A stretch of 64,000 nucleotides of DNA from a virus (IMGVR_UViG_3300011008_000009:1-64000); one strand, 5' to 3'; shown: positions 1 to 42,319, counted from the stretch's first letter. Program-made: numbers and translations. The notes: generated by a model from the sequence alone, not told the origin.

Positions 1-246
1 ACAAAATTTTCGCGCCGAAACTGTACATAATCACCACAAATGTAATCGTTATTATGTAATCGTTTACACCGGCGCCGAATTTTAATATACTAAAGCGCCG
101 AAGCGTTGGACCTGGATCTGCTTTATGCTTTAAACCATTAAAGTCCGACGTCGAACTTTCATACACTAAAGTGTTAAGGGGCCGATCCGGGAATTTATGC
201 ACCAAAACGTGAACAAAAAATTTTTTAAAAAATTTTTAAAAACCTA

Positions 247-275
247 TTGACAAATGACCCGAAATGTGCTATAAT
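247..275 (+). promoter_or_regulatory. sigma70/sigmaA-type promoter of paralog cassette A
   Basis: TTGACA 247-252, 17-nt spacer, TGcTATAAT (TATAAT 270-275). Phased A/T tracts at 215-246 upstream. AGGAGG at 292-297 precedes ATG 306. Confidence 0.8.
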
Positions 276-305
276 GTATATAGTAAAGGACAGGAGGACG
301 CGAAA

Positions 306-863
306 ATGAAAAAATGGAAATACGAAAACGAAATCAAGAACGCCACAGCAACACTCTTGAAAGCATATCTCGACACGATGCACAGCAAGACCATTGCAGT
401 AGTTTTCACAAATGAAAACGATGTTTACTACTATGACCTTACCGAAAATGATTTGACAGACCTTGCAAGAGTAAACAACGAAAAATTAATGACACAGTCA
501 CTCACGAAAAAAAGACTTGCAAAGTACCTTGAAAACGCTATCAAGTTCGCCACAATAAACGACATAGACGAAATCAAGAGAAACTTTCCGAGATACGCAA
601 ACAACAACGGATATATCGCGGAATTTGTTTACAGATACAAAAAGACAAATGAAACGATAGAAGAAATCAAAAAATCAAACAAATCAATCGCCTACGACCT
701 CGAAAGTGATACAAGAGATAACAAACAGATAAAAGAAATCACGAACGGCGCGACATTTACAACATTCGCCTACATATTGAAAGTAGCGAGAGAAAAGAAA
801 ATAGACTACTTAAACGAAATCGAAAACGCGGTAAATACACTCACAAAAATATACAGTGAGTAA
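306..863 (+). CDS. Hypothetical protein, left-end paralog A (185 aa)
   Basis: The track ORF 264-863 starts inside the -10 box. ATG 306 has a good SD. About 50% identical to the ORF at 2053-2601 (MKKWK..LL.AYL.TMHS, NNGYI.EF.YR, YD..SDT.DNKQIK, ATFTT). Own promoter and terminator. No family recognised. Confidence 0.8.
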   Translation: MKKWKYENEIKNATATLLKAYLDTMHSKTIAVVFTNENDVYYYDLTENDLTDLARVNNEKLMTQSLTKKRLAKYLENAIKFATINDIDEIKRNFPRYANNNGYIAEFVYRYKKTNETIEEIKKSNKSIAYDLESDTRDNKQIKEITNGATFTTFAYILKVAREKKIDYLNEIENAVNTLTKIYSE

Positions 864-867
864 AGGA

Positions 868-895
868 GTGTGGAACAGAAATGTTCCACATTTTC
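868..895 (+). terminator. Intrinsic terminator of cassette A
   Basis: Stem TGTGGAACA (869-877) / TGTTCCACA (882-890) followed by TTTT. Same hairpin sequence as the one after paralog B. Confidence 0.75.
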
Positions 896-1107
896 GCGCT
901 GATCTGTTTTGTGCTTTAATGTGTGAAAGTTCGACGTCGAATTATAACGCTTTAAACCACTAAAGCGCCGGACCTAGATCCGCCTCGACATTTTAAAGCA
1001 CTAAAGCGCCGGACATTGACATAGCGCACAGCCCGACTATTGCCGACCAGAGCGCTGTATTTTATTTAGTTTTGTTAATTACTCTTCATAGTTCGGGTCT
1101 GTGATAT

Positions 1108-1317
1108 TCAGCACAAACCGTCGTCAAATTCCAGTTTGCCATAGCCGTAGCTTAAATCAGCTTTCACAGCGTACTTTCTCAGCATATCCACGATGGTGCA
1201 TTCGTCTTCGGTGTAGTAGTTCATCGAGATAGTGTAGGTGTCCTCGCTCTCGTTGAGTTCGCCCGTGATGTCCGCGAGTTCGAGCATTCTTACGATAAGT
1301 CTTGCATTTGTAGTCAT
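1108..1317 (-). CDS. Small acidic hypothetical protein (69 aa)
   Basis: ORF with about 14 D/E versus 6 K/R. Driven by a near-consensus promoter at 1371-1399. The SD is weak. G+C and codon style are richer than the surrounding spacer. Confidence 0.55.
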   Translation of the reverse strand: MTTNARLIVRMLELADITGELNESEDTYTISMNYYTEDECTIVDMLRKYAVKADLSYGYGKLEFDDGLC

Positions 1318-1344
1318 ATTTTTGTACTCACTGATATATATTTT

Positions 1345-1363
1345 GTGAACTCTCTCTGTTCAC
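1345..1363 (-). promoter_or_regulatory. Inverted repeat in the 5' leader of the acidic ORF (operator or RNA hairpin)
   Basis: GTGAAC-TCTCTCT-GTTCAC lies between the -10 box and the start codon. Confidence 0.45.
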
Positions 1364-1370
1364 TGATAAC

Positions 1371-1399
1371 AGTATAACACATATCCAAACAGAAGTCAA
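1371..1399 (-). promoter_or_regulatory. sigma70/sigmaA-type promoter (leftward)
   Basis: On the minus strand: TTGACT (1399-1394), 17 nt, TATACT (1376-1371). Confidence 0.7.
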
Positions 1400-1582
1400 T
1401 AGATTTTGAAAAGTTTTTTTAATTCGTATAATATGCACAAATGCATAGATATATATGTGATTTTATTGTACATTATGCATATAAAAACGTTACAATTCGA
1501 TTGTTTTGATGTTTTGAAAATGTTTTAGATTGTTAAAAGTTTAACAGATTTGAGTTAGTCTATGCTAACTGAAACGATAAAA

Positions 1583-1910
1583 TGTAATCGATTACATATA
1601 TATTTGTCAAATATGCATAGTGATGTTTAGTAATAATGCACAATAAAACGTGTAATCGATTACATTATCAACGTGTAAACGATTACATTGTGAAATTTTT
1701 AACACTCACGATCTTGACTTGTTAAAATTTTAATGATCCTGCGCTTTAAATGATTAAAGCAAATAATTAGTTTGACAAACTAATTAAATCGTTAAACTTT
1801 TAACAAATGAATTTATTGATTAGTTTGTCAAACTAATTAAATTGTTAAAAGTTTAACAAATACGTCTGTAATTAGTTTGACAAACTAATCAAAACGTGTA
1901 AACGATTACA
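1583..1910. repeat. 14-bp palindrome family TGTAA(T/A)CGATTACA (operator-like)
   Basis: Perfect TGTAATCGATTACA at 1583-1596 and 1651-1664. TGTAAACGATTACA at 1674-1687 and 1897-1910, both inside the shared string AACGTGTAAACGATTACATTG. The inverted form TGTAATCGTTTACA is at 55-68 and a half-site at 41-48. Confidence 0.8.
1766..1889. repeat. Three 19-bp palindromes ATTAGTTTG(A/T)CAAACTAAT in about 52-53-bp tandem units
   Basis: Copies at 1766-1784, 1819-1837 and 1871-1889. The intervening sequence is also repeated: GTTAAACTTTTAAC at 1791-1804, and its inverse GTTAAAAGTTTAAC at 1844-1857 and 1532-1545. A degenerate copy is at 2723-2741. Confidence 0.85.
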
Positions 1911-1993
1911 TTGTTAAAGTTTTCACAAGCAGATCCATTTTGTACAATATGCACAAATTTTCTGAAAATATGCACAAATGTGAAAAAAACCTA

Positions 1994-2022
1994 TTGATTT
2001 TTCTCTTTTTTAGGTGTATAAT
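1994..2022 (+). promoter_or_regulatory. sigma70/sigmaA-type promoter of paralog cassette B
   Basis: TTGATT 1994-1999, 17 nt, TATAAT 2017-2022. Shares the AAAAACCTATTGA context with the promoter at 247. ATATGCACAAAT repeats lie just upstream (1946-1977). Confidence 0.75.
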
Positions 2023-2052
2023 AAAGAAAAACAAGGAAGGAAGTACCGAAAA

Positions 2053-2601
2053 ATGAAAAAATGGAAATTTGAAAAGGAAATAACCGAAAGCACAAAAACA
2101 CTCTTGACTGCATACCTTGCAACTATGCATAGTGTTGCTATCACTGCAATATTCACCTACAATGATAATGTTTATGCTTACGACTTAACCGAAAGCGATA
2201 CAAACGAATTGGCAACAGTGACCGCCGAAAAAATACAGATTAATTCATTAGGAAAAAAGAGAATTGAAAAAATTCTCAATAAGTCGGAAAAATTCGCAAC
2301 AGTTGAACAACTTGAAAAAATCCGTGAATACTTCCCTAAATACAACAACGGTTATATTTCAGAATTTGCATACAGAATAATTAAAAACGGCGAAAGCATA
2401 GAAAATATTAAACACTCAAACAATTCAAAAGGTTACGACATTTCAAGCGATACAAAAGACAACAAACAGATTAAAAACCTTGATAATAAAGCGACTTTCA
2501 CAACATACGATTATTTAATAAAAGCCTGCAACAGAAAAGGTTATAAAGATATTGAAAAGGTAATAAATGCAATAGCAACGCTAAAAGAAATATACAACTA
2601 A
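2053..2601 (+). CDS. Hypothetical protein, left-end paralog B (182 aa)
   Basis: Paralog of 306-863. The track ORF 2014 begins in the promoter. ATG 2053 gives the conserved MKKWK N-terminus. Confidence 0.8.
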   Translation: MKKWKFEKEITESTKTLLTAYLATMHSVAITAIFTYNDNVYAYDLTESDTNELATVTAEKIQINSLGKKRIEKILNKSEKFATVEQLEKIREYFPKYNNGYISEFAYRIIKNGESIENIKHSNNSKGYDISSDTKDNKQIKNLDNKATFTTYDYLIKACNRKGYKDIEKVINAIATLKEIYN

Positions 2602-2609
2602 ACGAAAAG

Positions 2610-2643
2610 GTGTGGAACAGAAAATGTTCCACACTTCTTTTTT
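2610..2643 (+). terminator. Intrinsic terminator of cassette B
   Basis: Stem GTGTGGAACA (2610-2619) / TGTTCCACAC (2625-2634) followed by TTCTTTTTT. Confidence 0.85.
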
Positions 2644-2984
2644 AAATTAATTAATTATAAATACTAACTAAATCAACACGCCAAAATATACTATTTGTAT
2701 ATTAAACTTTTTTGTTAAGTGTATTAGTTAGACAAACTAACTATCAAATCCGAGCTGACAAAATTTTAACAATCCTGGGACTAGCTGACTTGTTAAAACT
2801 TTCACAAACCGCGGCATCATAATAATTAATTAGGGGCGCTAAATTCGCAGGACTCAGGCCCAGGCTTAGCTAATACCTAGCGTGGGGGTAGGTTTTAGGA
2901 ATTTTTCACTTTAATGCGCTAAAGTGGGGCGGGCCTGCAACATACCACGACCGAAATTAAAATCCATCCTCTACCCTCCAATAT

Positions 2985-3013
2985 TTGACATTTTCCCAAT
3001 TTTATGCTATACT
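2985..3013 (+). promoter_or_regulatory. sigma70/sigmaA-type promoter ahead of the rightward gene block
   Basis: TTGACA 2985-2990, 17 nt, TGcTATACT (TATACT 3008-3013). Confidence 0.7.
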
Positions 3014-3052
3014 ATAATTAGATTAAAATTTTGGAGGTTAAATTATCTAACT

Positions 3053-4246
3053 ATGATCAAACTCGATTTCAGTCTACAATCTGAACAACAAAGATTAGAC
3101 TATATAAATCAATACGACCTCTCAAAACTTTCCCAATCTCAAATAGAACTCTGTGCAAATTACATACTTTATGGAAAAGATAAAACCGGTAAATCCGAAG
3201 TCGATAAAAAACACATTTATATAAATACGAAATATGATAGTTATAAAACCAAACGTCCAGAGTCACTAGATGCATTGATTGATACTGGAAGTTTTGACGA
3301 GGTAATAATACCTAAGTATGACCAGCACTATAAGACCGTTAAACCTACTATAGATAGGGTGAAGGACGCTGATATTCCCACGATGAAAGAAGTGTGGGAG
3401 GGAATAGATTACTTGCAACATATATTGGATGTGAATTTAGGGAAGGCGGAGCCGGACCCCGGTGAGAACGTTCCAAAATTAACTCCCACCGAATTATATA
3501 AGTGGCAACATATGGTGATAGACGTTAGGCGCAATCAGTACTACCTCAAAGATATATTCAAGCCAACTATAAATAAGTATTTCAATAAACTCAACTACAT
3601 CCCCTACCACGATGCCAACGAAGCCGACTGGAACGACCCTAATTCAGACTACGGATTCGCGCCCTTAGGTCTAATCAATGATTTTGGGGTGGGTAAGCTG
3701 GTATTTAGCGGCGCCACCAATTATGAGGTAAGAACGCCGTTGTATAATGAAAATGCGCGTCATATAGTGGACTTCCGCAATCCTAAACATGTATATAGTT
3801 TAATGGACTATTATGAAGAGTTAGCTACCGCCGCCCTAGATAACCCAACTAGCCTTATGGGGCTGATAGTGAGGACGTTAGACTATTATATTGATAGAGC
3901 GAATTTGAAGGATCAGCATTATACTATTATTGAAATGAAGAAGTTACATAAAAAGAATAAGGAGATTAATGAAAAATTAACCGAATTATATGGATTACAT
4001 CATACCGAAAATTACATTAGTACGATATGGACACATAAGGTGTGTACCGAAATTGCCGCAGCCGCACAATTACACTATGATGAGTTTTTAAGACGAAACG
4101 ATGAAAGTGCTTGGAAGGTTTGCTGTACGTGCGGGCGCCGTTTACTAAGAGACAGCAGAATGTTTGTGAAGAAGAATAAGGCGAAGGACGGATTGAGTGG
4201 TAGATGCAAGATGTGCGATAGAGTAGAGAGAATGCGCAGGAGATGA
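3053..4246 (+). CDS. Hypothetical protein with C-terminal zinc ribbon (397 aa)
   Basis: The track ORF 2924 runs through the promoter. The first ATG after it is 3053, but GGAGG lies 15 nt upstream, so the start is uncertain. C-terminus: CCTCG..F..K..DG....CKMC. No family recognised. Confidence 0.6.
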   Translation: MIKLDFSLQSEQQRLDYINQYDLSKLSQSQIELCANYILYGKDKTGKSEVDKKHIYINTKYDSYKTKRPESLDALIDTGSFDEVIIPKYDQHYKTVKPTIDRVKDADIPTMKEVWEGIDYLQHILDVNLGKAEPDPGENVPKLTPTELYKWQHMVIDVRRNQYYLKDIFKPTINKYFNKLNYIPYHDANEADWNDPNSDYGFAPLGLINDFGVGKLVFSGATNYEVRTPLYNENARHIVDFRNPKHVYSLMDYYEELATAALDNPTSLMGLIVRTLDYYIDRANLKDQHYTIIEMKKLHKKNKEINEKLTELYGLHHTENYISTIWTHKVCTEIAAAAQLHYDEFLRRNDESAWKVCCTCGRRLLRDSRMFVKKNKAKDGLSGRCKMCDRVERMRRR

Positions 4247-4253
4247 GTAGTGA

Positions 4254-5195
4254 ATGGCGAGTTATTTTAAGAAGTGTACTTCGTGTAATAGAGAGCAACC
4301 CATTACAAGTTTTAGTAAGGTAAGAAGTAAGTTCTTTAGTGATGGTATGCTGACGATATGCAATGATTGCTTAGATTTGATGGTAAAGGCGGGCAAACCA
4401 AACGAAGAATGGGATAGAGTGAATAAGATATGCCAATGGGCGGACGTACCATTCTTACCTGATGAATGGCAGAAGATACGTCAGGGCGCCGATAGCAATT
4501 GGTTCAGTAGGTACACTAAGATTTTTAGTGCTAAGGGATTTGAAGATATTAGTTGGCGCGATTACAACGAGTTGTATATGAAGTTGCATCAATCGGGAGA
4601 ATTGGTGGAGGAAGTACCGGGGTATAGTGAAGCTAAGTATGAGAACTTAGTGAAGAAGTGGGGTAGTTCATATGACCACGAAGAGTTGGATAGGCTGGAA
4701 GACTTATTTAATGAGACTATTGCGACCCAGAACGTTACTACTGGTAACCAAATAGACCAGGTGAAAAAGATTTGCAAGACTTCTTTGATGATAGACCAGA
4801 GAATTGAGGAAGGTAATCCATATAAGGATTTGATGGATAGCTATGAGAAGTTGATAAAAGTTGCAGACTTAACGCCGAAGAATACTAAAAACTCAAATGA
4901 CTTTGATAGCGTGGGCGAGGTTTACGCATACCTAGAAGGACGCGGTTGGGTGAATAAGTACTATGACGGCGCCCGTAGGGATGAAGTAGATGAAACGATG
5001 AAGAATATACAGAATTGGACTAGAAAGCTGTGTCTAGGAGAGTCTACTTTAACAGAAGAGATACTGCAGAAGATAAATAATTTAACTGGCTATAATGAGG
5101 GAGATGAAACAGATTATGACTCTTTTGATTATGACCAGTATGAGAAAGAAGCTATGGACCAAGCGCAAAACCAAGAGGTGGAAGTTGAAGTATAA
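4254..5195 (+). CDS. Hypothetical protein with N-terminal zinc ribbon; positional candidate for the small terminase subunit
   Basis: CTSC..F....F.DG....CNDC at the N-terminus and an acidic C-terminus. Stop overlaps the TerL start (TAATG). The TerS call rests on gene order only. Confidence 0.35.
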   Translation: MASYFKKCTSCNREQPITSFSKVRSKFFSDGMLTICNDCLDLMVKAGKPNEEWDRVNKICQWADVPFLPDEWQKIRQGADSNWFSRYTKIFSAKGFEDISWRDYNELYMKLHQSGELVEEVPGYSEAKYENLVKKWGSSYDHEELDRLEDLFNETIATQNVTTGNQIDQVKKICKTSLMIDQRIEEGNPYKDLMDSYEKLIKVADLTPKNTKNSNDFDSVGEVYAYLEGRGWVNKYYDGARRDEVDETMKNIQNWTRKLCLGESTLTEEILQKINNLTGYNEGDETDYDSFDYDQYEKEAMDQAQNQEVEVEV

Positions 5196-7003
5196 TGGAT
5201 GAAGAGAATGTTTTAACGCCCGAAAAGTTAAGAGAAAGACTTATGGCACTGAAAGCTAAGACAGAGACCAATACTCACAAAAGTACATCGTATAATAGAA
5301 TGGTCAAAGATGGAATAGTAGTACAGAAAGGTTCAACACTAAGTAAGCATAGAATAGATAGTCACTTAGCTTTATATCAAATATATTGTACTTTTTTCAG
5401 TGCCTACCCTGATTTATTTCTAGATTTAATTAAGCCAGAAAATAGTGGATTTCAGTTCTTTTTCTATCAGAGAATATTTTTAAGAGCCTGTTTAAGATAT
5501 AGGCTAGTTTACACCACGGCGCCGAGAGCTTTCAGTAAGTCTTTCATTTCGATATTAGCTATACTACTAATTTGTATTTTCAGACCTGGAATGAAGGAGT
5601 TCATTTGCGCGCCTGGTAAGGAACAGTCCGCAAAGATAGCGAAGGAGAAGTTGGTTGAAATCTTTGGTATCTGGCCGCTCCTAGAAAAGGAATTGGAAAA
5701 GCAAAATTACGGCAAAGATTATGTAGAGTTATTCTTTAAGAATGGCAGTAAGTTCGACGTTGTCGGCGCCCTAGACAGCCAACGTGGTGGACGTAGACAC
5801 GGCGGACTGGTAGATGAGATACGTGATCATGATGGTGATACTATAAATGAAGTAGTACTGCCGCTGATGAATGTATCTAGACGTACTACCAAAGGTATAT
5901 TAAATCCTTATGAGCCTCACCAATGTCAATTCTTTATGACTTCTGCTGGCTCTAAGGCATCATACGCATATGAGAAGCTGATAGAAGTATTACAGACGGA
6001 AGTAATCAATCCTAAACAGGCTTTTGTCTGGGGATGTGATTATAGAGTTCCTATGAAATGCGGATTACTGCCTAAGGACTACTTACAGGAAATTAAGAGT
6101 TCCAGTACCTATAAGGAAGAGACCTTTGCGAGAGAGTATTTGGGTCTTTGGACGGGCAGTAGCGAAGAGTCCTGGTTTGATTATGAGAAAATTAGTCGGC
6201 GCCGGACCCTACTCAATCCCGAAACGCACCAAAAAATTGTACGAGGTAGTAAGGCTTTTTACTTACTCTCAGTGGATGTGGGACGTTTGAGTTGTCAAAC
6301 AGTTTGTTGCGTCTTTAAGGTTATGAATAAGAAAGATGTACTGCACGCGAATCTAGTGAATTTATACGTTATAGGTAAGAATGAAAAGAATAGGCACTTT
6401 GAACAACAAGCATTGGAATTAAAGAAAATTATAGCGGCTTTCGACCCTAGAGAGATTGTTATAGATGGTAACGGTCTGGGCGTCGGATTGTTAGACTTTA
6501 TGATTCGTCCAACTATTGACGGAGAAACTGGTATAACTTATCCGCCTTACGGTAGCTGCAATAATGAAGATTATATTAAAATTCAACCTAAAGATTGTCA
6601 GAGAATAATTTATGTAATTAAGGCTAACAATACTTTAGACGGAAAAATCCACGGAAATTGTTACTCTCGATTAACTAGTGGTTTGGTACAATTTTTAGTT
6701 AATGAAAGAGTTGCGAAAAATAAATTAATGGAACAAAAATCATATAATAATTTATCTCTTGAAAAGAAAGTTAAACGACTAATGCCCCATGAGATGACCT
6801 CTGATTTGTTTGAAGAAATGAGCAATTTGCGCTTGAAGAGCAATGCTGGTCTAGACATCAAATTGGAGCAGATACGTACACATAAAACAAAGGATAAATT
6901 TAGTGCTTTTGAGTATGGTCTTTGGAGAATAAAAGAGTTAGAAGACCAAATAATTAAAAAGAATAGAAAAGGCAAAATACGTGATTTAGTTTTCATTGGA
7001 TAA
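5195..7003 (+). CDS. terL: Terminase large subunit
   Basis: 602 aa. Walker-A-like APRAFSKSF, Walker-B GGLVDE, MTSAGSK, FAREYLGLW, and C-terminal nuclease-like LSVDVG / VIDGNGLGVG. Sits immediately upstream of the portal. Confidence 0.8.
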   Translation: MDEENVLTPEKLRERLMALKAKTETNTHKSTSYNRMVKDGIVVQKGSTLSKHRIDSHLALYQIYCTFFSAYPDLFLDLIKPENSGFQFFFYQRIFLRACLRYRLVYTTAPRAFSKSFISILAILLICIFRPGMKEFICAPGKEQSAKIAKEKLVEIFGIWPLLEKELEKQNYGKDYVELFFKNGSKFDVVGALDSQRGGRRHGGLVDEIRDHDGDTINEVVLPLMNVSRRTTKGILNPYEPHQCQFFMTSAGSKASYAYEKLIEVLQTEVINPKQAFVWGCDYRVPMKCGLLPKDYLQEIKSSSTYKEETFAREYLGLWTGSSEESWFDYEKISRRRTLLNPETHQKIVRGSKAFYLLSVDVGRLSCQTVCCVFKVMNKKDVLHANLVNLYVIGKNEKNRHFEQQALELKKIIAAFDPREIVIDGNGLGVGLLDFMIRPTIDGETGITYPPYGSCNNEDYIKIQPKDCQRIIYVIKANNTLDGKIHGNCYSRLTSGLVQFLVNERVAKNKLMEQKSYNNLSLEKKVKRLMPHEMTSDLFEEMSNLRLKSNAGLDIKLEQIRTHKTKDKFSAFEYGLWRIKELEDQIIKKNRKGKIRDLVFIG

Positions 7004-8556: not shown

Positions 8557-9897
8557 ATGCCAGAAAAAAAGATACCTACTTCCTTTGAGGTTCAATTATA
8601 TGGCGATTTAGTACCTTACTCTTCTACCATTTCTAAGGCTCGTGTACGAATTTTTTATAGGGGACTTAATAGAAATGGCTCTTATATATCGGAAGAGTTC
8701 GCTGAAAAATTAATAAAGACACTACCATATGCGCCTGTTAAGGGCATTTATGATGAAGAGGGCAAGGATTACACCGACCACGGCAATGGTATTAAAAGTC
8801 TCGGAAAGGCTTACGGTGTAGTTCCCGAAAACAATAACGGTAGTTGGGAACTTCATATGGACAATGATGGAGTCGAAAGACTTTACTACTGTAGTGATGT
8901 TCTTTTATGGACTTCCTTATATGAAGTTGCAAAAAGTATACCGGGCAAAGCTCAAAGCATGGAACTAGATTATGATAGTGTCAAAGGCGAATGGACTGAT
9001 TTCGGAGATTTTATAGCTTATAAATTTACCGATGGCTGTTTCTTAGGATTACAGGTATTAGGTACAATTAATGGAGAGGAAGTGGAGCCTTGCTTCGAAG
9101 GTAGTGCATTCTACACTAAGCAAGCAGACTTAAATTACCAATTCTCGGAAATCATAAAAATTGCCAAAAATTATAATTCACAAAAGGAGGATATAAAAAT
9201 GCCGGAAGAAAAACAGAATGTAACTCCTGAGTTAGAAAATTCGGTGGCTGATACATCCGCTAATGGCGCGAATACAGACACTTCGTTTGAAACTAACGAA
9301 GGCGCTGGTACAGATGCTGGAGCAGATGTTGGAACAGATACTGGTGCAGATGCAGGTACTGACGCTGGAACAGGCGCTGACACCAATACTGGTGATACTG
9401 GCGCGGACGCAGGTACTGCTGATACTAGTACTATTGATGCTAGTACAGGTGCTACAGTAGACATTAGTGGCGGCGCAGATAACAATGCTAACACAGGTAC
9501 AGACTATCAGCTTAAGTTTAACGAATTAACTGCTTCTTATAATGAGTTAAATGAAAAGTTTACCAAACTTTCGGATGAATTTTCTGTATTAACAGATAAA
9601 TTTAACCACTTACAAGCAGAAAGAGATAGTTTAGCTGAATACAAAGTAAATGCTGAAAATGAAGAGAAGAATCAAGTACTCGACAAATACTCCAATATTT
9701 TAAAGGCAGAAGTAATTCAGTCTTACAAAGAAAAAATAAATGATTTTTCTGTGATTGAACTTGAAAAAGAGCTATGTTTTGAGGCGCATAAGGATGATAC
9801 CTTTGAACCAGATACAGCAAACTTCTCTTACAAAAACAATGGTACGGTTGAGATGACACCTTTAATGAGTTGTCTTAATGATTACAGAACTGAATAA
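8557..9897 (+). CDS. Head scaffolding-type protein: N-terminal globular domain, T/D/G/A repeats and a coiled coil
   Basis: 446 aa between the portal and the capsid gene. Low-complexity GTDAGAD repeats and a heptad-rich C-terminus (LNEKFTKLSDEFSVLTDKFNHLQAERDSL). Confidence 0.55.
   Translation: MPEKKIPTSFEVQLYGDLVPYSSTISKARVRIFYRGLNRNGSYISEEFAEKLIKTLPYAPVKGIYDEEGKDYTDHGNGIKSLGKAYGVVPENNNGSWELHMDNDGVERLYYCSDVLLWTSLYEVAKSIPGKAQSMELDYDSVKGEWTDFGDFIAYKFTDGCFLGLQVLGTINGEEVEPCFEGSAFYTKQADLNYQFSEIIKIAKNYNSQKEDIKMPEEKQNVTPELENSVADTSANGANTDTSFETNEGAGTDAGADVGTDTGADAGTDAGTGADTNTGDTGADAGTADTSTIDASTGATVDISGGADNNANTGTDYQLKFNELTASYNELNEKFTKLSDEFSVLTDKFNHLQAERDSLAEYKVNAENEEKNQVLDKYSNILKAEVIQSYKEKINDFSVIELEKELCFEAHKDDTFEPDTANFSYKNNGTVEMTPLMSCLNDYRTE
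9199..9897 (+). CDS. Possible nested in-frame scaffold product (232 aa)
   Basis: In-frame ATG 9199 preceded by AAAGGAGG (9183-9190) at canonical spacing. It begins exactly where the repeat and coiled-coil part starts. Confidence 0.4.
   Translation: MPEEKQNVTPELENSVADTSANGANTDTSFETNEGAGTDAGADVGTDTGADAGTDAGTGADTNTGDTGADAGTADTSTIDASTGATVDISGGADNNANTGTDYQLKFNELTASYNELNEKFTKLSDEFSVLTDKFNHLQAERDSLAEYKVNAENEEKNQVLDKYSNILKAEVIQSYKEKINDFSVIELEKELCFEAHKDDTFEPDTANFSYKNNGTVEMTPLMSCLNDYRTE
9301..9500 (+). repeat. Imperfect tandem coding repeats (G-T-D-A-G-A-D units)
   Basis: Reiterated ggtaca/gatgct/ggagca/gatact units. They also generate spurious ORFs on both strands (9171-9494, 9263-9460). Confidence 0.8.
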
Positions 9898-16820: not shown

Positions 16821-18425
16821 ATGGGAAATATATTTAATAATGAATTGCTGCAATCTTCTTTTAATATTGCTTATAAAGAAAATTGGTTACAATCAAATTA
16901 TTTTGTACATAAATTAAAAAGTCCCTATGATACCAACAATATTGTTCAAAATGATAAAAAAGAATTGTTTGAAAAAATAAATAGTAATATTGATAAATTA
17001 AAAGCTGAAAATAATGCTCAAGAATGGAAGGTTAGAAAAATTAAACAAGAAGCCTTGATGCGAGCAATATTAAATAATAATACTTTATCTGGAATAGATT
17101 TAATTAGACAATTTAATCAGGCTTATTTAAATTATTTGAAAGAAAGTACAGTTTTATTTGATGAAAATGGTTATTACAATATATATGTTCAAGAAGTTTT
17201 AAGAAAAGAATTGGTTCTGTTTTATAAAAGTATTGATGACAATTATAAAAGTTATCAGTTTACTCAACAGGTTTCAGGTTCTTTAATTGAATTTTTTGAA
17301 AAAGAAAAATTAAAAAAAACGTCAATAGACTATTTTACAAATAGAATCGCTACTTTAAAGAAAAATATTAAAAATCTTGAAGAGAAAGAAAAATTATTAA
17401 AATATGAACGAATGGATTATTATGATAATCTTTCTCGATTAGAGGCTTGTCAAAGATTTAGTAATATTTTGTCACATAATGAAAAGTTTATTATAGAAAA
17501 TATTTTTATAGATGCTGGGAGAAAGCATAAAAACAAATTAAGTGGACAAGAAGCGGGTAGAGAATCCGAAAAATTATTCGAAGAGTTTGCTGGTGATTTT
17601 ATTCAGAAACAATTGGGTAATATTACTATTAAACAAACAGGTGCTGGACAAATGAGAATTGAAGCTTCAGAAAGTTTAAGTCAACAGTCTGAAGTTTATA
17701 CAATAAAAACAGATGTAGAATTAGAATTAGATTCTAGTATAATAAATAAAACTTTAAATCAGGTTGAGATAGATATCATTAATAAAATTAAAGAAGATAA
17801 TTCTTTTAAAAAAGATAAAATAAAATTTAATTTTAGCTTAAAAAATTATAAAACTGATACTAATTTTGATATCAGTGCTCAATCTAATAATAATATTACA
17901 AGTTTTTTGAATATCTTAATTAAAAACACAAAAAATAGAAATACCTTATCTTTTTTAAAAGATAAACATAATATAGAAAATTTACAATATTTTATTTTAA
18001 ATGATTTAGTAGACCACAGAAGTCAAAAAACAATAGAAGAATTTAAGAATCAATGTAAAGAGATAGGAATTAATGTATTATTAGCTTTAGATTCCGAAAG
18101 CGATGAAGTAGATTTTTTGGTTTTTAACCAAAGATTAATTCCTTCTTATTATTTATTAGAAAGCATAGAAAAAGAAAGGAAAAGATTAGAAAACTCAGCT
18201 TATAATCTTTTCTCAATACATATGAAAAAAGTACAACCTGTTGCTGTTATAGATAAAAAAAGAAGTGATAAAACTAATTTTTTAAAAGGATATTATTCTA
18301 AAAATTATTTAGAAAGTCATAAAGAGTATGGAGAAAAAATATATAACAGTATTTATATTAATACTAAAATAGATAAAAAATTTATTTTAAATATAATAAA
18401 AGAAATTACAGAAAAAGTAAATTAA
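16821..18425 (+). CDS. Asn/Lys-rich hypothetical protein in a low-G+C island (534 aa)
   Basis: By eye roughly low-20s % G+C against high-30s for both flanks. Sits between a terminator and the tape-measure gene. Possible nuclease-like G..SE ... TDVELEL ... FSLK spacing, which is weak. Confidence 0.7.
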   Translation: MGNIFNNELLQSSFNIAYKENWLQSNYFVHKLKSPYDTNNIVQNDKKELFEKINSNIDKLKAENNAQEWKVRKIKQEALMRAILNNNTLSGIDLIRQFNQAYLNYLKESTVLFDENGYYNIYVQEVLRKELVLFYKSIDDNYKSYQFTQQVSGSLIEFFEKEKLKKTSIDYFTNRIATLKKNIKNLEEKEKLLKYERMDYYDNLSRLEACQRFSNILSHNEKFIIENIFIDAGRKHKNKLSGQEAGRESEKLFEEFAGDFIQKQLGNITIKQTGAGQMRIEASESLSQQSEVYTIKTDVELELDSSIINKTLNQVEIDIINKIKEDNSFKKDKIKFNFSLKNYKTDTNFDISAQSNNNITSFLNILIKNTKNRNTLSFLKDKHNIENLQYFILNDLVDHRSQKTIEEFKNQCKEIGINVLLALDSESDEVDFLVFNQRLIPSYYLLESIEKERKRLENSAYNLFSIHMKKVQPVAVIDKKRSDKTNFLKGYYSKNYLESHKEYGEKIYNSIYINTKIDKKFILNIIKEITEKVN

Positions 18426-18436
18426 GGAGGTAAGTA

Positions 18437-21400
18437 ATGGCTAAAGAACGTGTAATACGCATAAGCACAGAACTTGACACATCAGGTATGCTTTCGGGCA
18501 TTAACCAAATGCGTCAGATGCTTGGTAATATAAATGTTGATTCTAATTTATTTAAAGATGTCAATAAAGATTTAGACAAAATCACTAAAGACATCCTAGA
18601 AGTCAAAAACTCTTTAAAAAATGGTATTCCCGAAAAAGGAGTTACTTCTTTTTTAAATAAAATAGAAAACATTAATAAAGTTTATAGCGCTCTACCCGAT
18701 AAAATAAAGCAGGTACAAATTAATACCCAAAACATTCGTTTTTCTAATCAAACTATTCAGCAATTAGAAACTTTAGACCAACAAATAATTAAATTAGGCG
18801 AAGATGCGAAAAAAGCTATAGGTGAAGATTTAAAAACTTCTTTAAGAAACGCTGTACCTAAAAATATAATTTCCGATGCGACATTAAAAACTTTAACAGA
18901 AGCTACTGATAAAACAAAGGCTTTTTCCGATTATTTTGACCAGATGGCAGATAATGCAGAAGCCGCGAAAGCTAAAGTAGCTAGTTCAATTAAAGATATT
19001 GCTAATACCATTGTAAAGAATACCGATGCAAACGCGACTCAAAAGCGCGCTGCTTTCTCGCAATTTGGTACTGCAGCTATGAATGCTTTACAAGGCGGCG
19101 CGATGGTAAATGTTGACGCCAAAGCTATGGCTCAAAATGCAGCAAATATTGGTGCGACAAAAAAGCAGTATGAGGCTTTAAAAAAGGCTATAATAGATTA
19201 TCAAGATGCTTTACAAAGCTCTAACAACGTATTAGCTCAAAGACAAGCTATACTTGATATTATAAGTAAAGCTGAGTCTGATGCAACCCAAATGGCTACC
19301 CAGGCGGCTAATTTAACCGTTCAAAGAGAGCAAACTGTTACTAATGCTATTAAGAACGAACAACAAGCTCAACAGCAAGCGGGTCAGGCGGCAGAAGCGA
19401 ATGGAAAAAAGACAGCCAATGCGTTAAATCAAGTTAGTGATAGCGCGCAAAAGGCTACTGCACATTTACAGAGACAAGACTCTCTTCTTAAGCAATTGGC
19501 TACTAGAGCCGCTTCTTTAATAGGTATTGGTGCTGTATTCAATTATATCACTCGTGGAATACGTGATGCTTGGAATAGTATTAAGGAGTTAGATAAGGAA
19601 TTTACTGCTATTGCAGTTGTTACTGATAAGACCACTTCTCAACTTTGGCAATCTTTTAATACCTATGCACAAATGGCTCAAGGTCTTGGTGTTGCCACTA
19701 AAGATGCAGTTGCAACTTCTGCTCTTTACTATCAACAGGGTCTAAAAACGGCAGATGTCATGACTCTTACTGCTGAGACCATTAAAATGGCGCAGATTGC
19801 TGGAATGGACTTCAAAACGGCAACTGACCAAATGACAGCAGCTCTTCGTGGTTATAATCTCGAAATGAGTCAGGCTAATATGGTTAATGATATATTCTCG
19901 ACATTAGCCGCTAACGCCGCAGTAGATACTAAGGAACTCTCTTATGCATTAACAAAAACTGCATCTATCGCAGAAAGCGCAGGTATGAGTATTGATACAA
20001 CCTCTGCTTTCTTAGCCAAGATGATTGAAACCACTCGTGAAGCGCCTGAGAATATCGGTACTGCGATGAAATCAATCGTTGCAAGATTTGAGGAATTAAA
20101 GAAAAATCCTTTAGCATTAAGTGTTGATGTAGAGGGCGAAGAGGTCGTAGCAAACAAGGTTGAAGCTGCGATTGCACTTGCCGGAGTTAAACTTCGTGAT
20201 GAAACTACTGGACAGTTTCGTAATTTGGACGATGTATTCCTGGAGCTTGCTAAATCTTGGGATAACCTAGATAGAAATACACAAAGATATATTGCTACTA
20301 TTGCAGCCGGTTCTAGACAACAGTCTCGTTTTATCGCCTTAATGGACGGATATGACAGAACGTTAGAATTAGTTGAGTTAGCTCAAGATAGTGAAGGACA
20401 AAGCGCCGCGCAATTCTTAAAGACATTAGATAGCTTAGATGGTAAGATAAATAAAATTACTAACTCTCTTGAAAGTTTGTATCAGAAATTCGTCAATTCT
20501 GATTTCTTTGGTGGATTACTTGATGGATTGAACGGTTTGCTGCAAGACTTCGGAGATTGGGATGCCGGTACATTAGCAGCCTTTGCTACCGCTGGAGTGG
20601 TGCTGGGTAATAACTTAATAAATGGTATTAGAACAAGTATTAAACAAACGCCTGATTTGTTTAATCAGTTAGTTGACGCTAAGAAATTGCGAGCATTAGG
20701 TGTGCAACGCACAGCAGAGAATAATAAATATAACACAGAATTACAAAAGTACAATGAAGCTACTACTAATTATTCTGCTGCGACAGCGAGAGAACAGCTT
20801 GCTAGAAAAGATTATGAACAATACTTAAGTCAAGGAAAAGGTAAAAAATATAATATACAAACAGTAGACAGTATTATAGAGTTAAAAAAGGTAAAAAAAG
20901 AAATTATAGAATTAGAAAATAGAATTAAAGACCCAGATAAGTATAATATAGATATTACTCAAGCCACTTCTAACTTAAATACTTTACAAGCACAAGCCGA
21001 TGCTCTTGAAAACGAAATTAAAAGTAAAATTCCAAGTCCTGCTATTTTAAATAGTGTTACTGGTAGTTCGCGTTTTCAGGATTATGAACAAGCTAAAGAA
21101 AATACTCAAAATGCTCAAGATGCAATGAAAGCAGCACAAGATGCATTGGTTGAAGCTGAAAAAGCTAAAGATGAAATTAATTCTACCTATGACGAAATGG
21201 AAGGCGAGGTAAATAAAAAAGCAGAAGAGCTTAAAGTTACTGCAGGCCAGGCTTTCCAAAATGCCGGCATGGCTTTGGTTAGTTCTTTAACTATAGGCAT
21301 CTCTATGGCTTTAGAGCAAGATAATCCTTGGGCAGCAATAGCTACTAGCACTTCTACTTTTCTTTTACAAATGTTACCTACCTTAATTCAGCAGGGTACT

Positions 21401-36020: not shown

Positions 36021-37034
36021 TTAGCCTTTTATATTGTAACCATATCCTTGTCCTTCATAAAACTCGATCCAGTATTTTTCCTTTGCGGTTAGATCCTTTT
36101 TGTCACATTCCTCAACTACTTGCCAAGTAAAGCTATAAGGACCGTCCTCTTTCATAGCTGGATATAGTTTATTAGATGTCATAGGTTCGGCGCCGACAGC
36201 TCGTTTAAGGTGTTGCCGCCAACGCTCTGCTATATCTACTGCTTGACCTATATACACTTTTTCATTCAAAGTGTTTGTCAGCTTGTAGATACCAGTAATT
36301 TGTTTGGTTCCTATTACTCGACCTACCAAATCTGTATACGGCTTTTCGTAATAGGTTTTATAAATTAATTTGTCTAATATCTCTGGGTGATGAAGCAGAT
36401 GCTTTATACTTTGTAAAGCCTGTATATCGGATATGTCGTTTTCTGTTATATTTAACTGATAAAATTTAGCCTTTTCTCGTATCTCTTCTTGCTCTTTGTT
36501 TATCTTTATTATACTTTCTTGTTTATCACGATATTCTTTCAGTATATGTTCAAAATTAGCTTTTTCTTTTTCATACTCTTCGGTCATTTGCCGTTTCAGT
36601 CTTTCACACTGTTGTTTATAACTTTCTACTTCTTTATTGGCATTATCATACATTTGGTTCTTAAATTCTTGCGTTTCGGCGCCGATACTATCTTTCTTAT
36701 CTTTTAGTTGAGATTGATAAATCTCTTCTAAAGACTTTAGAGCTTCTTCTTTCTCTTTTACGCCATTAGATAATATCTCATAAGAACCAGTTAAATTATT
36801 AATTTTGTTTTCTAATGAAAAACTTTTGGATTGCTGCTCTCTTAGGTCTGCATAAACTTTATCTCTATTTGCAGATAAATTTTCATATTGTTCGTTTAAT
36901 TCTTTTATCTCGTTTTCTTTAGATTCGATACTTTCTTTTAATTCTTGAAGACGACGTTTGGCTTCTCTACTTAAATACCAGTAGAGAAGCGCAAGTAGAC
37001 AACTAAGAATTATAACAATTGCAATAATTATCAT
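36021..37034 (-). CDS. Membrane-anchored coiled-coil protein with C-terminal GIY-YIG nuclease domain
   Basis: N-terminal hydrophobic helix (IIIAIVIILSCLLALLYWYL). About 200 aa of heptad-rich E/K sequence. C-terminus: GIYKLTN..KVYIGQAVDIAERWRQH...KEKYWIEFY..GYGYN. Start moved to ATG 37034 behind GAGGTG. Confidence 0.75.
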   Translation of the reverse strand: MIIIAIVIILSCLLALLYWYLSREAKRRLQELKESIESKENEIKELNEQYENLSANRDKVYADLREQQSKSFSLENKINNLTGSYEILSNGVKEKEEALKSLEEIYQSQLKDKKDSIGAETQEFKNQMYDNANKEVESYKQQCERLKRQMTEEYEKEKANFEHILKEYRDKQESIIKINKEQEEIREKAKFYQLNITENDISDIQALQSIKHLLHHPEILDKLIYKTYYEKPYTDLVGRVIGTKQITGIYKLTNTLNEKVYIGQAVDIAERWRQHLKRAVGAEPMTSNKLYPAMKEDGPYSFTWQVVEECDKKDLTAKEKYWIEFYEGQGYGYNIKG

Positions 37035-37047
37035 AACGCCGAACACC

Positions 37048-41652: not shown

Positions 41653-42319
41653 ACCCACGGCTCATAGCTATCAGCACGTTCCAAACGTACTTACACAATT
41701 TCTCATTACAATTCTTTTGCTTGGTTACTTCAAAAAATTCTTTAGTTAATGCATCATATTCTTTAGGATTTTTCTTGGCAATAGACTTTCTTAACTTATC
41801 TGCCCAGCTTAACGAAAAGCCGCCGAGTTCGGGTAACTGAACCAACTGCATAAATTGTTCCTGCGCAATACACAATCCATAAGATATTCCAACTATAGGT
41901 TTAAGGATTTCTTTCTCCTTCTCTCCTAAGCCGTATTGCTTCAATTCTTTATCCCATTCCATTTCATTAACTTTAAATCTCGCTAGCTTATTTAATGGCA
42001 TTTCCGCGCCCTTTTCGGGAGCCATAAGTCTTAATGCAGAGTTAAGAATTGCCAAGTCATCGACTGAGGTCGGCTTCATTAAGGCGATACCCTTAATTCC
42101 ACTATCTTTTTCCATTTGAAAGAAAGACCATATTTCGTGGTTCCAAAGTCTTTGCCAACTATTTATATTATCTCTTTCTATTTTATAAACGCCGACTATA
42201 CTTTCATATGTTTCTCTAAGAGAACCTTTATTTTCTACTCTGCCCGCTTCAAGAAGCAAATCAATACAAACTCTCATTTTATCAAGAGCTTCGATTGAGA
42301 GTAGATCCCACTTGATCAG
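41653..42319 (-). CDS. dnaE: DNA polymerase III alpha (DnaE-type), exon 2 of 3
   Basis: The open frame upstream of the track ATG reads LIKWDLLSIEALDK, equivalent to GLLKxDxLGL..L. It ends ...LIAMSRG plus the T of a split Tyr codon. Confidence 0.75.

Follow-up and report, generated by a model that had tools for sequence, protein, structure and literature searches.

We analyzed positions 1 to 3052 of a viral DNA stretch of 64,000 nucleotides (the window; all coordinates count from its first base). Coding sequence makes up 1,317 of these 3,052 nt (43%), as anticipated by a sequence-only reading that had called the region about half noncoding; outside it, the whole 64-kb window is densely coding. 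The same reading had listed three short open reading frames (ORFs), four promoters, and two terminators with identical stems, all of which we recovered: the only credible ORFs are those at 306-863 (+), 1108-1317 (-), and 2053-2601 (+), the promoters are four near-consensus σA promoters (10-12/12), and both terminators have the stem GTGTGGAACA/TGTTCCACAC. Neither TAG nor TGA readthrough yields an ORF spanning the gaps. Promoters, terminators, and operators in this region were all called by consensus match. The features, with the strand where one is assigned, are as follows:

1-27: truncated copy of the "H" palindrome (full 32-bp form TTGCACAAA-TTTTCGCGCCGAAA-TTGTGCAA), cut by the window start
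40-68: tandem cre-like pair spaced at 15 bp: TGTAATCGTTATTA, degenerate, and TGTAATCGTTTACA, an exact fit to the cre consensus
69-100: GGCGCC clamp plus hairpin-like CTTTAA..YTAAAG unit (CTAAAGCGCCG family)
120-185 (+): PE, copy 1
214-275 (+): A/T-rich UP-like tract plus P1, by consensus
247-275 (+): promoter P1, TTGACA-17-TGcTATAAT; 12/12 plus TG
306-863 (+): paralog A, 185 aa, orphan family
865-899 (+): intrinsic terminator tA, stem GTGTGGAACA/TGTTCCACA; stem-loop 865-895, dG -17.2, z -4.1
906-971 (+): PE, copy 2
950-1011: two more hp + CTAAAGCGCCGGAC units
1108-1317 (-): small acidic ORF, 69 aa; leftward cassette
1399-1371 (-): leftward promoter P_L, TTGACT-17-TGtTATACT; 10/12 plus TG
1431-1979: site array, 18 tiled sites of which 16 are palindromes; GC 25%
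1994-2022 (+): promoter P2, TTGATT-17-TATAAT; 10/12
2053-2601 (+): paralog B, 182 aa
2608-2645 (+): intrinsic terminator tB, stem as in tA; stem-loop 2608-2637, dG -18.4, z -5.1
2724-2740: TTAGT-type palindrome, one copy
2756-2772 and 2790-2807: Rex-like sites upstream of P3, the first weak, the second exact
2836-2966 (+): GC-rich island (GGGGGTAGGTTTTAGG; hp 2909-2924) plus box GGGCGGGCCTGCAACATACCACGACCGAAATTAAAATCCA, which is conserved throughout the lineage in front of the YonH/YonG/terminase operon
2985-3013 (+): promoter P3 of the packaging/structural operon, TTGACA-17-TGcTATACT; 11/12 plus TG
3053-4246 (+): first gene of the operon, phrog_5767 "sigma factor" match (1.9e-18)
4254-5195: YonG-like gene, following 3053-4246
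5195-7003: YonF-type large terminase, following the YonG-like gene

The region had also been described as built of repeated modules. These modules are real, but since the ORFs at 306 and 2053 are paralogs (52% amino acid identity), part of the repetition is an old tandem gene duplication that included promoter and terminator. Paralog A gave a confident structure model with no match among known folds. The slot of the 69-aa ORF (1108-1317), the one that we looked at in detail for ORF replacement between conserved flanks, is occupied by unrelated proteins in the window, in the related locus L005, and in loci L004 and L013, and the flanks align at 84-92%. Further downstream, the gene at 3053-4246 precedes the YonG-like gene, which we take to be the place of yonH in the SPbeta gene order. 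The large terminase is of the SPbeta YonF type and 44% identical to that of Geobacillus virus E3, genes downstream in the relatives match Pfam YonG_N, YonD_N, and YonB, and a replisome module (helicase, primase-like protein, Pol III alpha, and gyrase) lies at 33-62 kb. No DNA similarity to deposited phages was found. Judged by this gene module and by its relatives, the phage is probably a siphovirus of a rumen Firmicute with a genome of about 140 kb, and it combines an SPbeta-type packaging/head module (YonG/YonF/YonE/YonD/YonB) with its own replisome.

At least five families of short repeats or palindromes had been claimed; all of them are real, and there are at least six, found nowhere in the 64-kb window but in its first 3 kb. 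Their counts are 5 sites versus 1.3 expected for TGTAAWCGATTACA, 4 versus 0.13 for TTAGTTTGNCAAACTAA, about 8 versus 1.3 for TTGTTAAAAGTTTAACA (only touched on earlier), three exact copies each for CTAAAGCGCCG and ATATGCACAAAT, two for the CGACGTCGAA core, and eight sites for CTTTAA-N4-YTAAAG (hp). The segments said to be shared upstream of the second and third promoters are present at about 1715/2786 and 1724/2761.

A composite element of 66 nt, PE, consists of two CTTTAA-CR-CTTTAA-N4-YTAAAG units around the palindrome CGACGTCG. Together with the window's two copies, 10-15 per locus in five related loci give 66 copies in all, and in the relatives PE occupies most intergenic spacers of the early-gene block. 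All copies share the same absolute orientation, and in L005 they lie 56-155 bp upstream of the next -35 element. Across the 65 aligned distinct copies, paired cells amount to 87.0% under a hairpin model and 77.8% under a cruciform model, versus shuffle expectations of 86.8% and 79.3%, and the RNA fold has a z-score of -0.7. We thus rejected PE as an RNA structure; the lack of base-pair covariation indicates a DNA sequence motif instead. The stoperators of mycobacteriophage L5, 13-bp asymmetric repressor sites of a temperate phage, offer a parallel, being likewise short conserved protein-binding sequences dispersed over many intergenic spacers in fixed orientation. Binding to PE is putative, however, and PE differs in being 66 nt long and composite, with no repressor or lysogeny module seen here.

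Related rumen metagenome contigs of 100-161 kb carry the region internally, and in five related contigs at least 10 kb of small leftward ORFs lie just to its left. Counting leftward promoters that score ≥11/13 in three of these loci (L004, L005, and L010), we found 17-19 near-perfect σA promoters (TTGAC[AT]-17-TGnTATAAT) per ~10 kb, roughly one per gene, alongside 13-15 PE copies per ~10 kb; the early-block genes of these loci have no Pfam matches. Each spacer in the relatives runs from a GC hairpin to PE and then to a promoter, a module order that can be read directly in L005, and the H palindrome lies ~8 bp upstream of the -35 element of leftward early promoters. This places positions 1-3052 at the right-hand border of a run of small early genes transcribed leftward.

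This block bears on a further suggestion of the sequence-only reading, namely, that the region resembles the early or host-takeover ends of large virulent phages. The SPO1 host-takeover module and the T5 pre-early region are clusters of small genes, (nearly) each with a strong promoter for the host RNA polymerase, and show low coding density at a genome-map boundary; they sit in terminal redundancies or first-step-transfer DNA. The early block shares with these regions, and with T4 early regions, the architecture of one promoter per small gene, but the sequences are not homologous, and the related contigs do not support a terminal location. In these contigs the junction lies inside the sequence, at widely differing places: ~107 of 143 kb, 39 of 100 kb, 42 of 140 kb, and 15 of 161 kb. 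Moreover, because the first base of the window falls inside the promoter-proximal palindrome truncated at 1-27, base 1 splits a module, and the supposed left end is an assembly convention.

Our preferred reading, to which we assign a probability of roughly 0.6, is that positions 1-3052 control divergent transcription where an early-gene block composed of reiterated cassettes ends on its right-hand side. Along the direction of transcription, a cassette would consist of the GC hairpin terminator of the previous gene, PE, in some cases a cre-like pair, the TGCACAAA palindrome, a near-consensus σA promoter, a strong ribosome binding site, and a small ORF. The window would hold the last cassettes of the block: two carrying the 185-aa orphan gene that exists as a tandem duplicate (A and B), with a separate promoter for each copy and terminators of identical stem, and a leftward one with the exchangeable 69-aa ORF, followed by P3 for the packaging/structural operon. 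Host RNA polymerase would fire the early promoters directly after infection, and the repeated elements, as the PE alignment indirectly suggests, would act as double-stranded DNA sites for sequence-specific proteins rather than as RNA structures. These proteins may time or modulate early transcription, and the repeats may in addition provide homology for cassette exchange, as seen at one slot.

A similar organization is known from the promoter-early stem-loop (PeSL) cassettes in the hyperplastic regions of T4-type phages (Arbiol et al. 2010, PMC2839356; Comeau et al. 2014, PMC4122927). Both systems hold many composites of a strong σ70-type early promoter and a terminator hairpin between small nonessential ORFan genes, and in both, ORFs are replaced between conserved cassettes in close relatives. 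In the present case, promoters and stem-loops combine as in PeSLs (terminator z-scores of -4.1 and -5.1; promoters 10-12/12), many clustered copies occur in L004, L005, and L010 (the window itself has only four promoters and two PE copies), and replacement bounded by cassettes is seen at one slot, 1108-1317, where the ORF exchange resembles that of the T4 cassettes. We nevertheless rejected membership in the PeSL class, given an SPbeta/E3-type terminase/head module instead of a T4-type myovirus and no DNA similarity to any deposited phage. Besides belonging to what is probably a siphovirus of a Gram-positive host, the cassettes add the 66-nt PE, the TGCACAAA palindrome, and cre-like pairs, which PeSLs lack. 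By analogy, the early cassette system may work like PeSLs without being one of them.

The densest collection of sites lies in the spacer at 1400-1993, 594 bp without an ORF at 24.6% GC versus 35% for the genome. Its array (1431-1979) is made up of four cre-like sites, six Rex-like sites, three TTAGTTTGNCAAACTAA sites, one AGTTAG-N6-CTAACT, one hp, and three TGCACAAAT half-sites, with centers spaced at 16-33 bp except for two wider gaps (68 and 102 bp). The P2 -35 element is separated by 74 to 456 bp from the palindrome centers upstream of it, and the TGCACAAAT half-sites, at ~20-40 bp from it, are the closest sites of the array. In a positional check, no array site overlapped the -35/-10 hexamers of any core promoter, a placement unusual in simple repression and unlike that of most characterized cre and Rex sites. 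The stretch 1371-1650 is 94% identical to L005, versus 94% for gene A and 90% for gene B, and this noncoding DNA is under constraint. Situated upstream of P_L and P2, the array is predicted to be a dense platform for at least four different DNA-binding proteins.

The array palindrome TGTAAWCGWTTACA is an exact fit to the cre consensus TGWAANCGNTNWCA, the binding site of CcpA (PMC5263246). The window contains six exact matches, all within 55-1910, versus 0.10 expected in 64 kb, and the putative sites form 14-bp dyads, perfect or nearly so, around a central CG. The palindrome is identical in every relative that carries cre-like sites (L003 alone has none), and it is unchanged even in IMG/VR contigs of 140-161 kb whose YonH/YonG homologs are only 30-50% identical. 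A phage promoter read by CcpA has a precedent in the staphylococcal prophage PhiSa3XN, where CcpA binds a cre site in the cI promoter (PMC12607152). However, characterized cre sites overlap or lie just downstream of the promoter (repression) or are found at about -56 (activation), a position that we looked for and did not find: the P2 -35 lies 90-405 bp downstream of the site centers in the array and the P_L -35 190-505 bp away from them, and the P1 -35 follows the exact site at 55-68 at a distance of ~185 bp. Whereas a known cre is a single promoter-overlapping site, here arrays of 4-12 sites stand far upstream, often as direct tandems at 15-23 bp (periods of 15, 22, and 23 bp), and look more iteron-like than single cre operators.

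The second prominent type, TTGTTAA-N4-TTAACAA, equals the clostridial Rex motif. Rex operators have been described as TTGTGAANNNNTTCACAA (PMC6391272) and, in Clostridiaceae, as TTGTTAANNNNTTAACAA (PMC9600882), and the putative sites match the consensus TTGTGAA/TTGTTAA-N4-TTCACAA/TTAACAA. Eight of the nine window matches to TTGTKAA-N4-TTMACAA (≤2 mismatches) fall in 1530-2807, three of them exact; three exact and three one-mismatch sites lie within 400 bp, and one exact site is located upstream of P3. Two close relatives, L010 and L013, have no Rex-like sites. The sites lie upstream of core promoters, whereas known Rex operators overlap them, and CRP/FNR-type factors have the same TGTNA-N6-TNACA geometry. 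The cre- and Rex-type sites might be bound by host CcpA and Rex or else by a very conserved phage protein; if CcpA and Rex bind, early expression would be coupled to the carbon and redox state of the host.

It is conceivable, although we hold it only tentatively, that the palindromes are operators of phage-encoded regulators alone and that the cre and Rex matches reflect convergence on common helix-turn-helix half-sites, with no host factor involved. Among 2.9 million IMG/VR contigs, tandem cre-like sites were found only in this one phage lineage, a restriction that a host factor would explain no better than a lineage-specific binder encoded by the phage. The dispersed element also tracks the lineage (PE in the window's clade, ATTTAGACGTWGTACGTCTAAAT in L003, and cre-like pairs in L036), as expected if protein and site coevolve. 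An 86-aa winged-helix-turn-helix protein is encoded at 54003-54263, and the many early ORFs without a recognizable domain could be novel DNA binders. On the other hand, the 14-bp cre-like and Rex-like sites stay unchanged across members whose proteins are at 30-60% identity, and a central CG step with 14-bp symmetry is a hallmark of LacI/GalR-family sites. Neither a LacI-type or Rex-type protein nor a CcpA homolog was found in the 192 kb inspected (the window plus 128 kb of related loci).

That no site overlaps a core promoter keeps alive an alternative that we regard as rather unlikely, and which is compatible with the regulatory reading: phage replication may start, here alone or at other places too, in the array at 1400-1993. 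Its 14-bp palindromes at 15-23 bp would then serve a phage initiator as iterons, with the flank 1400-1650, highly conserved and very rich in A+T, as an unwinding element and the divergent P_L/P2 a source of transcriptional activation. A phage with a helicase, a primase-like protein, Pol III alpha, and a gyrase of its own needs an origin, and the cumulative GC-skew minimum and the strand switch both fall in this AT-rich, ORF-free spacer, although GC skew is confounded by gene orientation. Array copy number differs between close relatives whose flanks are ~94-97% identical. The cloned origins of lactococcal phages ("Per" elements) are likewise noncoding and rich in direct and inverted repeats. 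Direct repeats recur at ~23 bp (1651/1674; L004 11763/11786/11809/11835), L015 has three consecutive ones at 22 bp, and a composite unit repeats at ~53 bp. Iterons would be at least three helically phased direct repeats beside an AT-rich region; the periods here are 22-23 and 53 bp, but the spacing ranges over 15-79 bp and the dyads are of several kinds, with four different palindrome families being more than an origin normally needs. Furthermore, cre-like pairs, TTAGT, hp, and TGCACAAA also accompany individual early promoters over 10 kb in the relatives, a distribution to be expected of transcription factors more than of a single origin. There is no enrichment of DnaA boxes, none of which lies in 1-3052, and no initiator gene adjoins the array, the neighboring genes being orphans.

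An improbable reading places a pac/cos packaging site or a terminal-repeat boundary in the region, with the G-rich block at 2836-2966 as the terminase recognition site and the record starting near a physical end. The block (GGGGGTAGGTTTTRGG ... GGGCCTG.AACA..ACGACCGAAATTAAAA) is found upstream of the operon in the window, L004, L005, L010, and L003, and partially in L036, and its conservation is deeper than that of most other noncoding elements of the region. SPbeta, whose terminase is homologous, packages by the headful mechanism from an intergenic pac site (yonR-yonP) on the same side of the structural genes (10.1101/2021.11.22.469490), which favors such a placement. Yet about -20 to -150 of a near-consensus promoter is also the normal place of an activator site, and the fold of the island is unremarkable as RNA or DNA (z = -0.9). 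The conserved box is a candidate for either a pac or an activator site. Further evidence against a terminus at base 1 comes from the split promoter module and from the junction, whose variable, internal position in long related contigs would result if circular or permuted assemblies were opened at arbitrary points. In several short contigs, moreover, the duplicated terminator forms the end, a break of the kind that repeats typically cause in assemblies.

Finally, the earlier caveat of misassembled repeats or a chimeric contig end, to which a window start within a repeated element and the tendency of such repeats to break assemblies might point, is effectively refuted and its probability close to nil: at least six contigs, assembled independently from different samples and projects, agree in the order of genes and elements, with 84-92% identity, and among them are contigs of 143 kb and 100 kb that span the region.

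The first reading of this DNA, made from sequence alone, had listed promoters, terminators and repeats in the first 3 kb of the window, and all of these elements were found at the positions claimed. The low coding density was borne out, with 43% of the 3,052 nt in ORFs; read-through of TAG or TGA opens no ORF in the gaps, so an alternative genetic code was rejected as a way of filling them. The four predicted sigma-A promoters score 10 to 12 of 12 and three carry a TG extension; the two terminators have a common stem, GTGTGGAACA/TGTTCCACAC (z = -4.1 and -5.1 versus shuffled sequence). The promoters and ORFs are as follows.

247-275, + strand, predicted promoter P1
306-863, + strand, ORF of orphan protein A (185 aa)
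1108-1317, - strand, ORF
1371-1399, - strand, predicted promoter P_L
1994-2022, + strand, predicted promoter P2
2053-2601, + strand, ORF of orphan protein B (182 aa)
2985-3013, + strand, predicted promoter P3

The ORF at 306 has a paralogue, with 52% identity, in the one at 2053, and promoter, gene and terminator were therefore duplicated as one unit. Each of the repeat families is significantly over-represented and limited, within the 64 kb, to the first 3 kb. Two motifs that had been reported separately, CGACGTCGAA and GCTTTAAACCAYTAAAG, are portions of a single larger element; a further motif, TGCACAAA, is a candidate protein-binding site, as are the 66-nt element PE and the TTAGT palindrome family. 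Known RNA families were discarded as an explanation, as a permissive Rfam search of 1-3300 gave only chance miRNA-like matches to the palindromes. No tRNAs are present, and the CodY box, with a single one-mismatch match at 1956, does not form a significant family. As a whole the finding is real and not an artefact: it is statistically robust, and independently made assemblies conserve it.

One part of the sequence-only reading, that this block may lie at a genome end, was not supported. Positions 1-27 are the right-hand 27 nt of a 32-bp palindrome, 90% identical to positions 9334-9364 of the related locus L005, which puts the first base of the window some 13 nt to the right of a missing leftward -35. 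Moreover, the junction lies at about 107 of 143, 39 of 100, 42 of 140 and 15 of 161 kb in related long contigs, and several short ones terminate within the duplicated terminator. From these observations it is concluded that the "left end" arose either because the assembly broke within a repeat or because a circular or permuted assembly was opened at an arbitrary point, and that it is no demonstrated terminus, a practical warning against taking such contig ends for termini.

The rest of the window consists of two large modules, followed by two further ORFs.

3.05 to 33.1 kb, rightward, packaging and structural module with a gene in the YonH position, a YonG-like gene, terminase, portal, head and tail genes, and ORFs of 2852 and 1690 aa
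5195-7003, YonF-type large terminase of the rightward module
33 to 62 kb, leftward, DNA-metabolism and replication module with RuvC, dUTPase, ThyX, ClpP, RecJ, PhoH, GyrA and GyrB, a DnaB-type helicase and a Pol III alpha gene interrupted by genes for homing endonucleases
Past the replication module up to the window end, an MFS transporter ORF and an NrdG-like ORF

The terminase is 44% identical to its counterpart in Geobacillus virus E3 and groups with SPbeta YonF. The first 3.1 kb has no DNA similarity to deposited phages by megablast or blastn, and close relatives come exclusively from bovine and yak rumen and gut metagenome assemblies. Judged by its gene module, the lineage probably comprises siphoviruses that infect Gram-positive bacteria of the rumen. 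The cultured relatives Geobacillus E3 and Phass-1 were set aside as guides to the region, their organisation upstream of the terminase being different. Phass-1, a gut phage among the nearer terminase relatives, is classed in a "code 15" (TAG-recoded) clade; the window gives no sign of recoding. A search for the host through prophages returned none among 185,579 species genomes, and a scan with the PE pattern had a 5-kb yak-rumen fragment as its sole match, binned to a Saccharibacteria genome, probably by mis-binning.

All 25 homologues of protein A are metagenomic, from rumen or gut, and the contigs carrying them include ones of 143 and 100 kb that cover the whole region. To the left of the gene A homologue, these relatives have 10 kb or more of small ORFs, all leftward, of 48-249 aa and without Pfam domains, separated by spacers of 200-500 bp, and a scan of three related contigs yielded 17-19 leftward TTGAC[AT]-17-TGnTATAAT promoters per 10 kb. 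In transcription order, a cassette of L005 comprises the previous gene's GC hairpin, PE, in some cases a tandem TGTAATCGTTTACA pair, the 32-bp palindrome TTGCACAAA-TTTTCGCGCCGAAA-TTGTGCAA, which stops about 8 bp short of the -35, the promoter, the RBS AAAGGAAAGG and the ORF. One slot for such an ORF can be followed among the window and the related loci L004 and L005: the flanks align at 84-92%, and the ORFs between them encode unrelated proteins of 69, 68 and 79 aa, the exchangeable 69-aa one of the window being acidic (pI 4.2).

ORF exchange between conserved cassettes has been described for the PeSL cassettes of T4-type phages (PMC2839356, PMC4122927), and the swapping of unrelated ORFs between conserved flanks in the window's lineage is alike. 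T4-type phages are unrelated to this phage and PeSLs lack PE-like and operator-like parts, so the likeness is one of function rather than membership. The region is best explained as a set of reiterated early-gene cassettes, together with a multi-factor control region where early and late genes diverge. Its nearest known counterparts are regulatory cassettes of the PeSL type and the regions that large lytic phages use for host takeover, from which the region differs in its composite PE and in dyad arrays equal to the cre and Rex consensus. To our knowledge, early regions of reiterated promoter/terminator cassettes are well described in T4-type phages only; the same cassette logic, with additional conserved and putatively protein-binding elements, in an uncultured and probably siphoviral lineage that would infect Gram-positive rumen bacteria suggests a general solution for plastic host-takeover regions.

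PE was defined from 66 copies in the window and five related loci, 65 of which were aligned (consensus CTTTAACACTTTAATGTACTAAAGTCCGACGTCGAACTTTAACGCTTTAAAGTGTTAAAGTGGCGA). It is no simple palindrome: two units of ~26 nt (CTTTAA-CR-CTTTAA-N4-YTAAAG) stand in tandem about the dyad CGACGTCG, in the same absolute orientation in all copies. An RNA or cruciform structure was rejected, since paired cells matched the shuffle expectation under three-hairpin and cruciform models, neither of which gave an excess of compensatory changes in the 65 aligned copies; nor is PE more stable as RNA than shuffled sequence. The loops vary, and hardly any variation is seen in the CTTTAA/TAAAG hexamers and GACGTC. 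Together with the missing covariation, this pattern is the mark of a motif in double-stranded DNA, putatively read by a protein and/or kept as homology by inter-copy recombination, rather than of a structured transcript. The more distant locus L003 (best terminase segment 62% identical) has the same architecture with another dispersed 23-bp dyad, ATTTAGACGTWGTACGTCTAAAT, in 7 copies, which suggests that the dispersed element and a putative binder co-evolve with the phage. With its 66 copies, PE joins four other motif families in a tractable set of cis-elements for finding binding proteins. In L003 (217-381 and 1440-5552), four of the seven ATTTAGACGTWGTACGTCTAAAT copies have a Rex-like site ~30 bp away, and a 20-bp tandem array of 7 TTAATGGAATTAGTTTTAAA-like units is also present.

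A dense array of operator-like sites lies between the -35 hexamers of P_L and P2, a spacer of 594 bp (24.6% GC) without an ORF. Here 18 sites are tiled, with centres 16-33 bp apart save two gaps of 68 and 102 bp.

1400-1993, four cre-like sites, TGTAAWCGATTACA
1400-1993, six Rex-like sites, TTGTKAA-N4-TTMACAA-like
1400-1993, three TTAGT-type sites, TTAGTTTGNCAAACTAA
1400-1993, one AGTTAG-N6-CTAACT site
1400-1993, one CTTTAA-N4-TTAAAG site
1400-1993, three half-sites, TGCACAAAT

Composites recur within the array: cre-like plus Rex-like twice, and TTAGT plus Rex-like with a 53-bp period. In close relatives the spacer flanks are ~94-97% identical, as conserved as coding sequence, and units of the central array are gained and lost.

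Two of the families resemble sites of Firmicute regulators, and the consensus strings were checked in the literature (cre, TGWAANCGNTNWCA, PMC5263246; Rex, TTGTGAANNNNTTCACAA, PMC6391272; the Rex motif TTGTTAANNNNTTAACAA is typical of Clostridiaceae, PMC9600882). Exact cre matches number 6 in the window, all within 55-1910, versus 0.10 expected, and eight of the window's nine Rex-type matches fall within 1530-2807. The cre-like dyad is unchanged in every close relative, at 4-9 copies each. An IMG/VR-wide contig scan for two cre-like sites at most 30 bp apart returned three contigs only (140, 155 and 161 kb), all with exact cre-like sites in their early spacers (3-12) and all three without PE and the TTAGT dyad. 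In the two of their sequenced stretches that reach the packaging genes, the YonH/YonG homologues are only ~30-50% identical to those of the window. Kept at this distance where PE and TTAGT are absent, the cre-like site is, as judged from these comparisons, the lineage's most deeply conserved cis-element. Rex-like sites occur in L004, L005, L003 and L015 (13 matches in the last, about a dozen of them good); none was found in the related loci L010 and L013.

Several partly overlapping readings can be given of what acts at these sites. One tentative possibility is a conserved phage-encoded binder. A single recognisable DNA-binding protein, of 86 aa and winged-HTH/MarR-like (54003-54263, - strand), was found in the window, and it is a candidate binder of one palindrome family. 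Alternatively, host CcpA and Rex may bind the sites; tblastn detected no phage-encoded CcpA or Rex in the window or 128 kb of related loci, and CcpA control of a phage promoter has a precedent in PhiSa3XN (PMC12607152). Against host factors speak the long distance from the sites down to the promoters, their arrangement as direct tandems with periods of 15, 22 and 23 bp, and the restriction of the trait to one lineage, and we therefore put host-factor binding at a probability of about 0.2-0.3. If it held, a large and probably lytic phage would clearly have tied its early programme to the carbon and redox state of its host. An iteron-type origin is a doubtful reading of the array; DnaA boxes show no enrichment. 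It is unlikely that, more broadly, a lineage of ~140-160-kb phages infecting rumen and gut Firmicutes keeps, within the early control region, deeply conserved arrays of high-affinity sites for the global host regulators of carbon (CcpA, at cre) and redox (Rex) that make early expression dependent on host state or titrate the repressors. Under the first option, early expression and hence the course of infection would depend on host metabolic state; under the second, arrays in many replicated genome copies would act as decoys for CcpA and Rex, de-repressing host catabolism.

Upstream of P3, positions 2836-2966 hold a G-rich stretch GGGGGTAGGTTTTAGG, one CTTTAA-N4-YTAAAG hairpin-like unit and a box GGGCGGGCCTGCAACATACCACGACCGAAATTAAAATCCA that stops 18 bp ahead of the -35. 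A recognisable G-rich stretch and box precede the same operon in L004, L005, L010 and L003, and partly in L036. The GC island at 2818-2965 was rejected as structured RNA (z = -0.9). The block may be bound by an activator, in which case P3 would be a delayed promoter. It may instead be a terminase recognition site, a reading kept alive by the intergenic pac site (yonR-yonP) and headful packaging of SPbeta (10.1101/2021.11.22.469490). The first protein of the operon (3053-4246) matches a PHROG "sigma factor" family (1.9e-18) and no Pfam or NCBIfam model; its C-terminus and the N-terminus of the YonG-like protein (4254-5195) both carry a zinc-ribbon-like CxxC...CxxC.

A and B belong to an orphan family, for which AlphaFold gives a model of very high confidence (pLDDT 91.8). 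Sequence searches of Pfam, NCBIfam and PDB gave no match and those of PHROG only marginal ones, to families of unknown function; no Foldseek match in PDB or BFVD had E below 0.08. A PD-(D/E)xK nuclease, suspected from conserved residues, was dropped. A/B may be a new fold, expressed from the region's strongest predicted promoter. Cre-like sites precede each paralogue gene in every relative, and the paralogue may be their regulated target or even their binder. Downstream of the single paralogue of L010 (10590-10950) lie ATTCAATTGAACACAATTAAATTGAA and its inverse, along with ACTTTAGTGTACGAAACA units, a family missing from the window.

Elsewhere in the window, the Pol III alpha gene (38915-45482, - strand) is fragmented into PHP/NTPase, finger and HHH pieces, separated by a LAGLIDADG ORF (40464-41453) and a GIY-YIG ORF (42443-43357). 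Further GIY-YIG ORFs lie at 36021-37046, 58371-59090 and 59533-60234, the latter two between gyrA and gyrB. The GC content drops to 22.6-26.9% at 17000-19000, versus about 35% elsewhere, in the stretch where a 534-aa ORF ends and the 2852-aa ORF begins. Near the window end, a 407-aa ORF (62342-63565, - strand) matches MFS_1 (Major Facilitator Superfamily; 5e-25), unusual as phage cargo, and adjoins the NrdG-like radical-SAM activase ORF (63505-63999).
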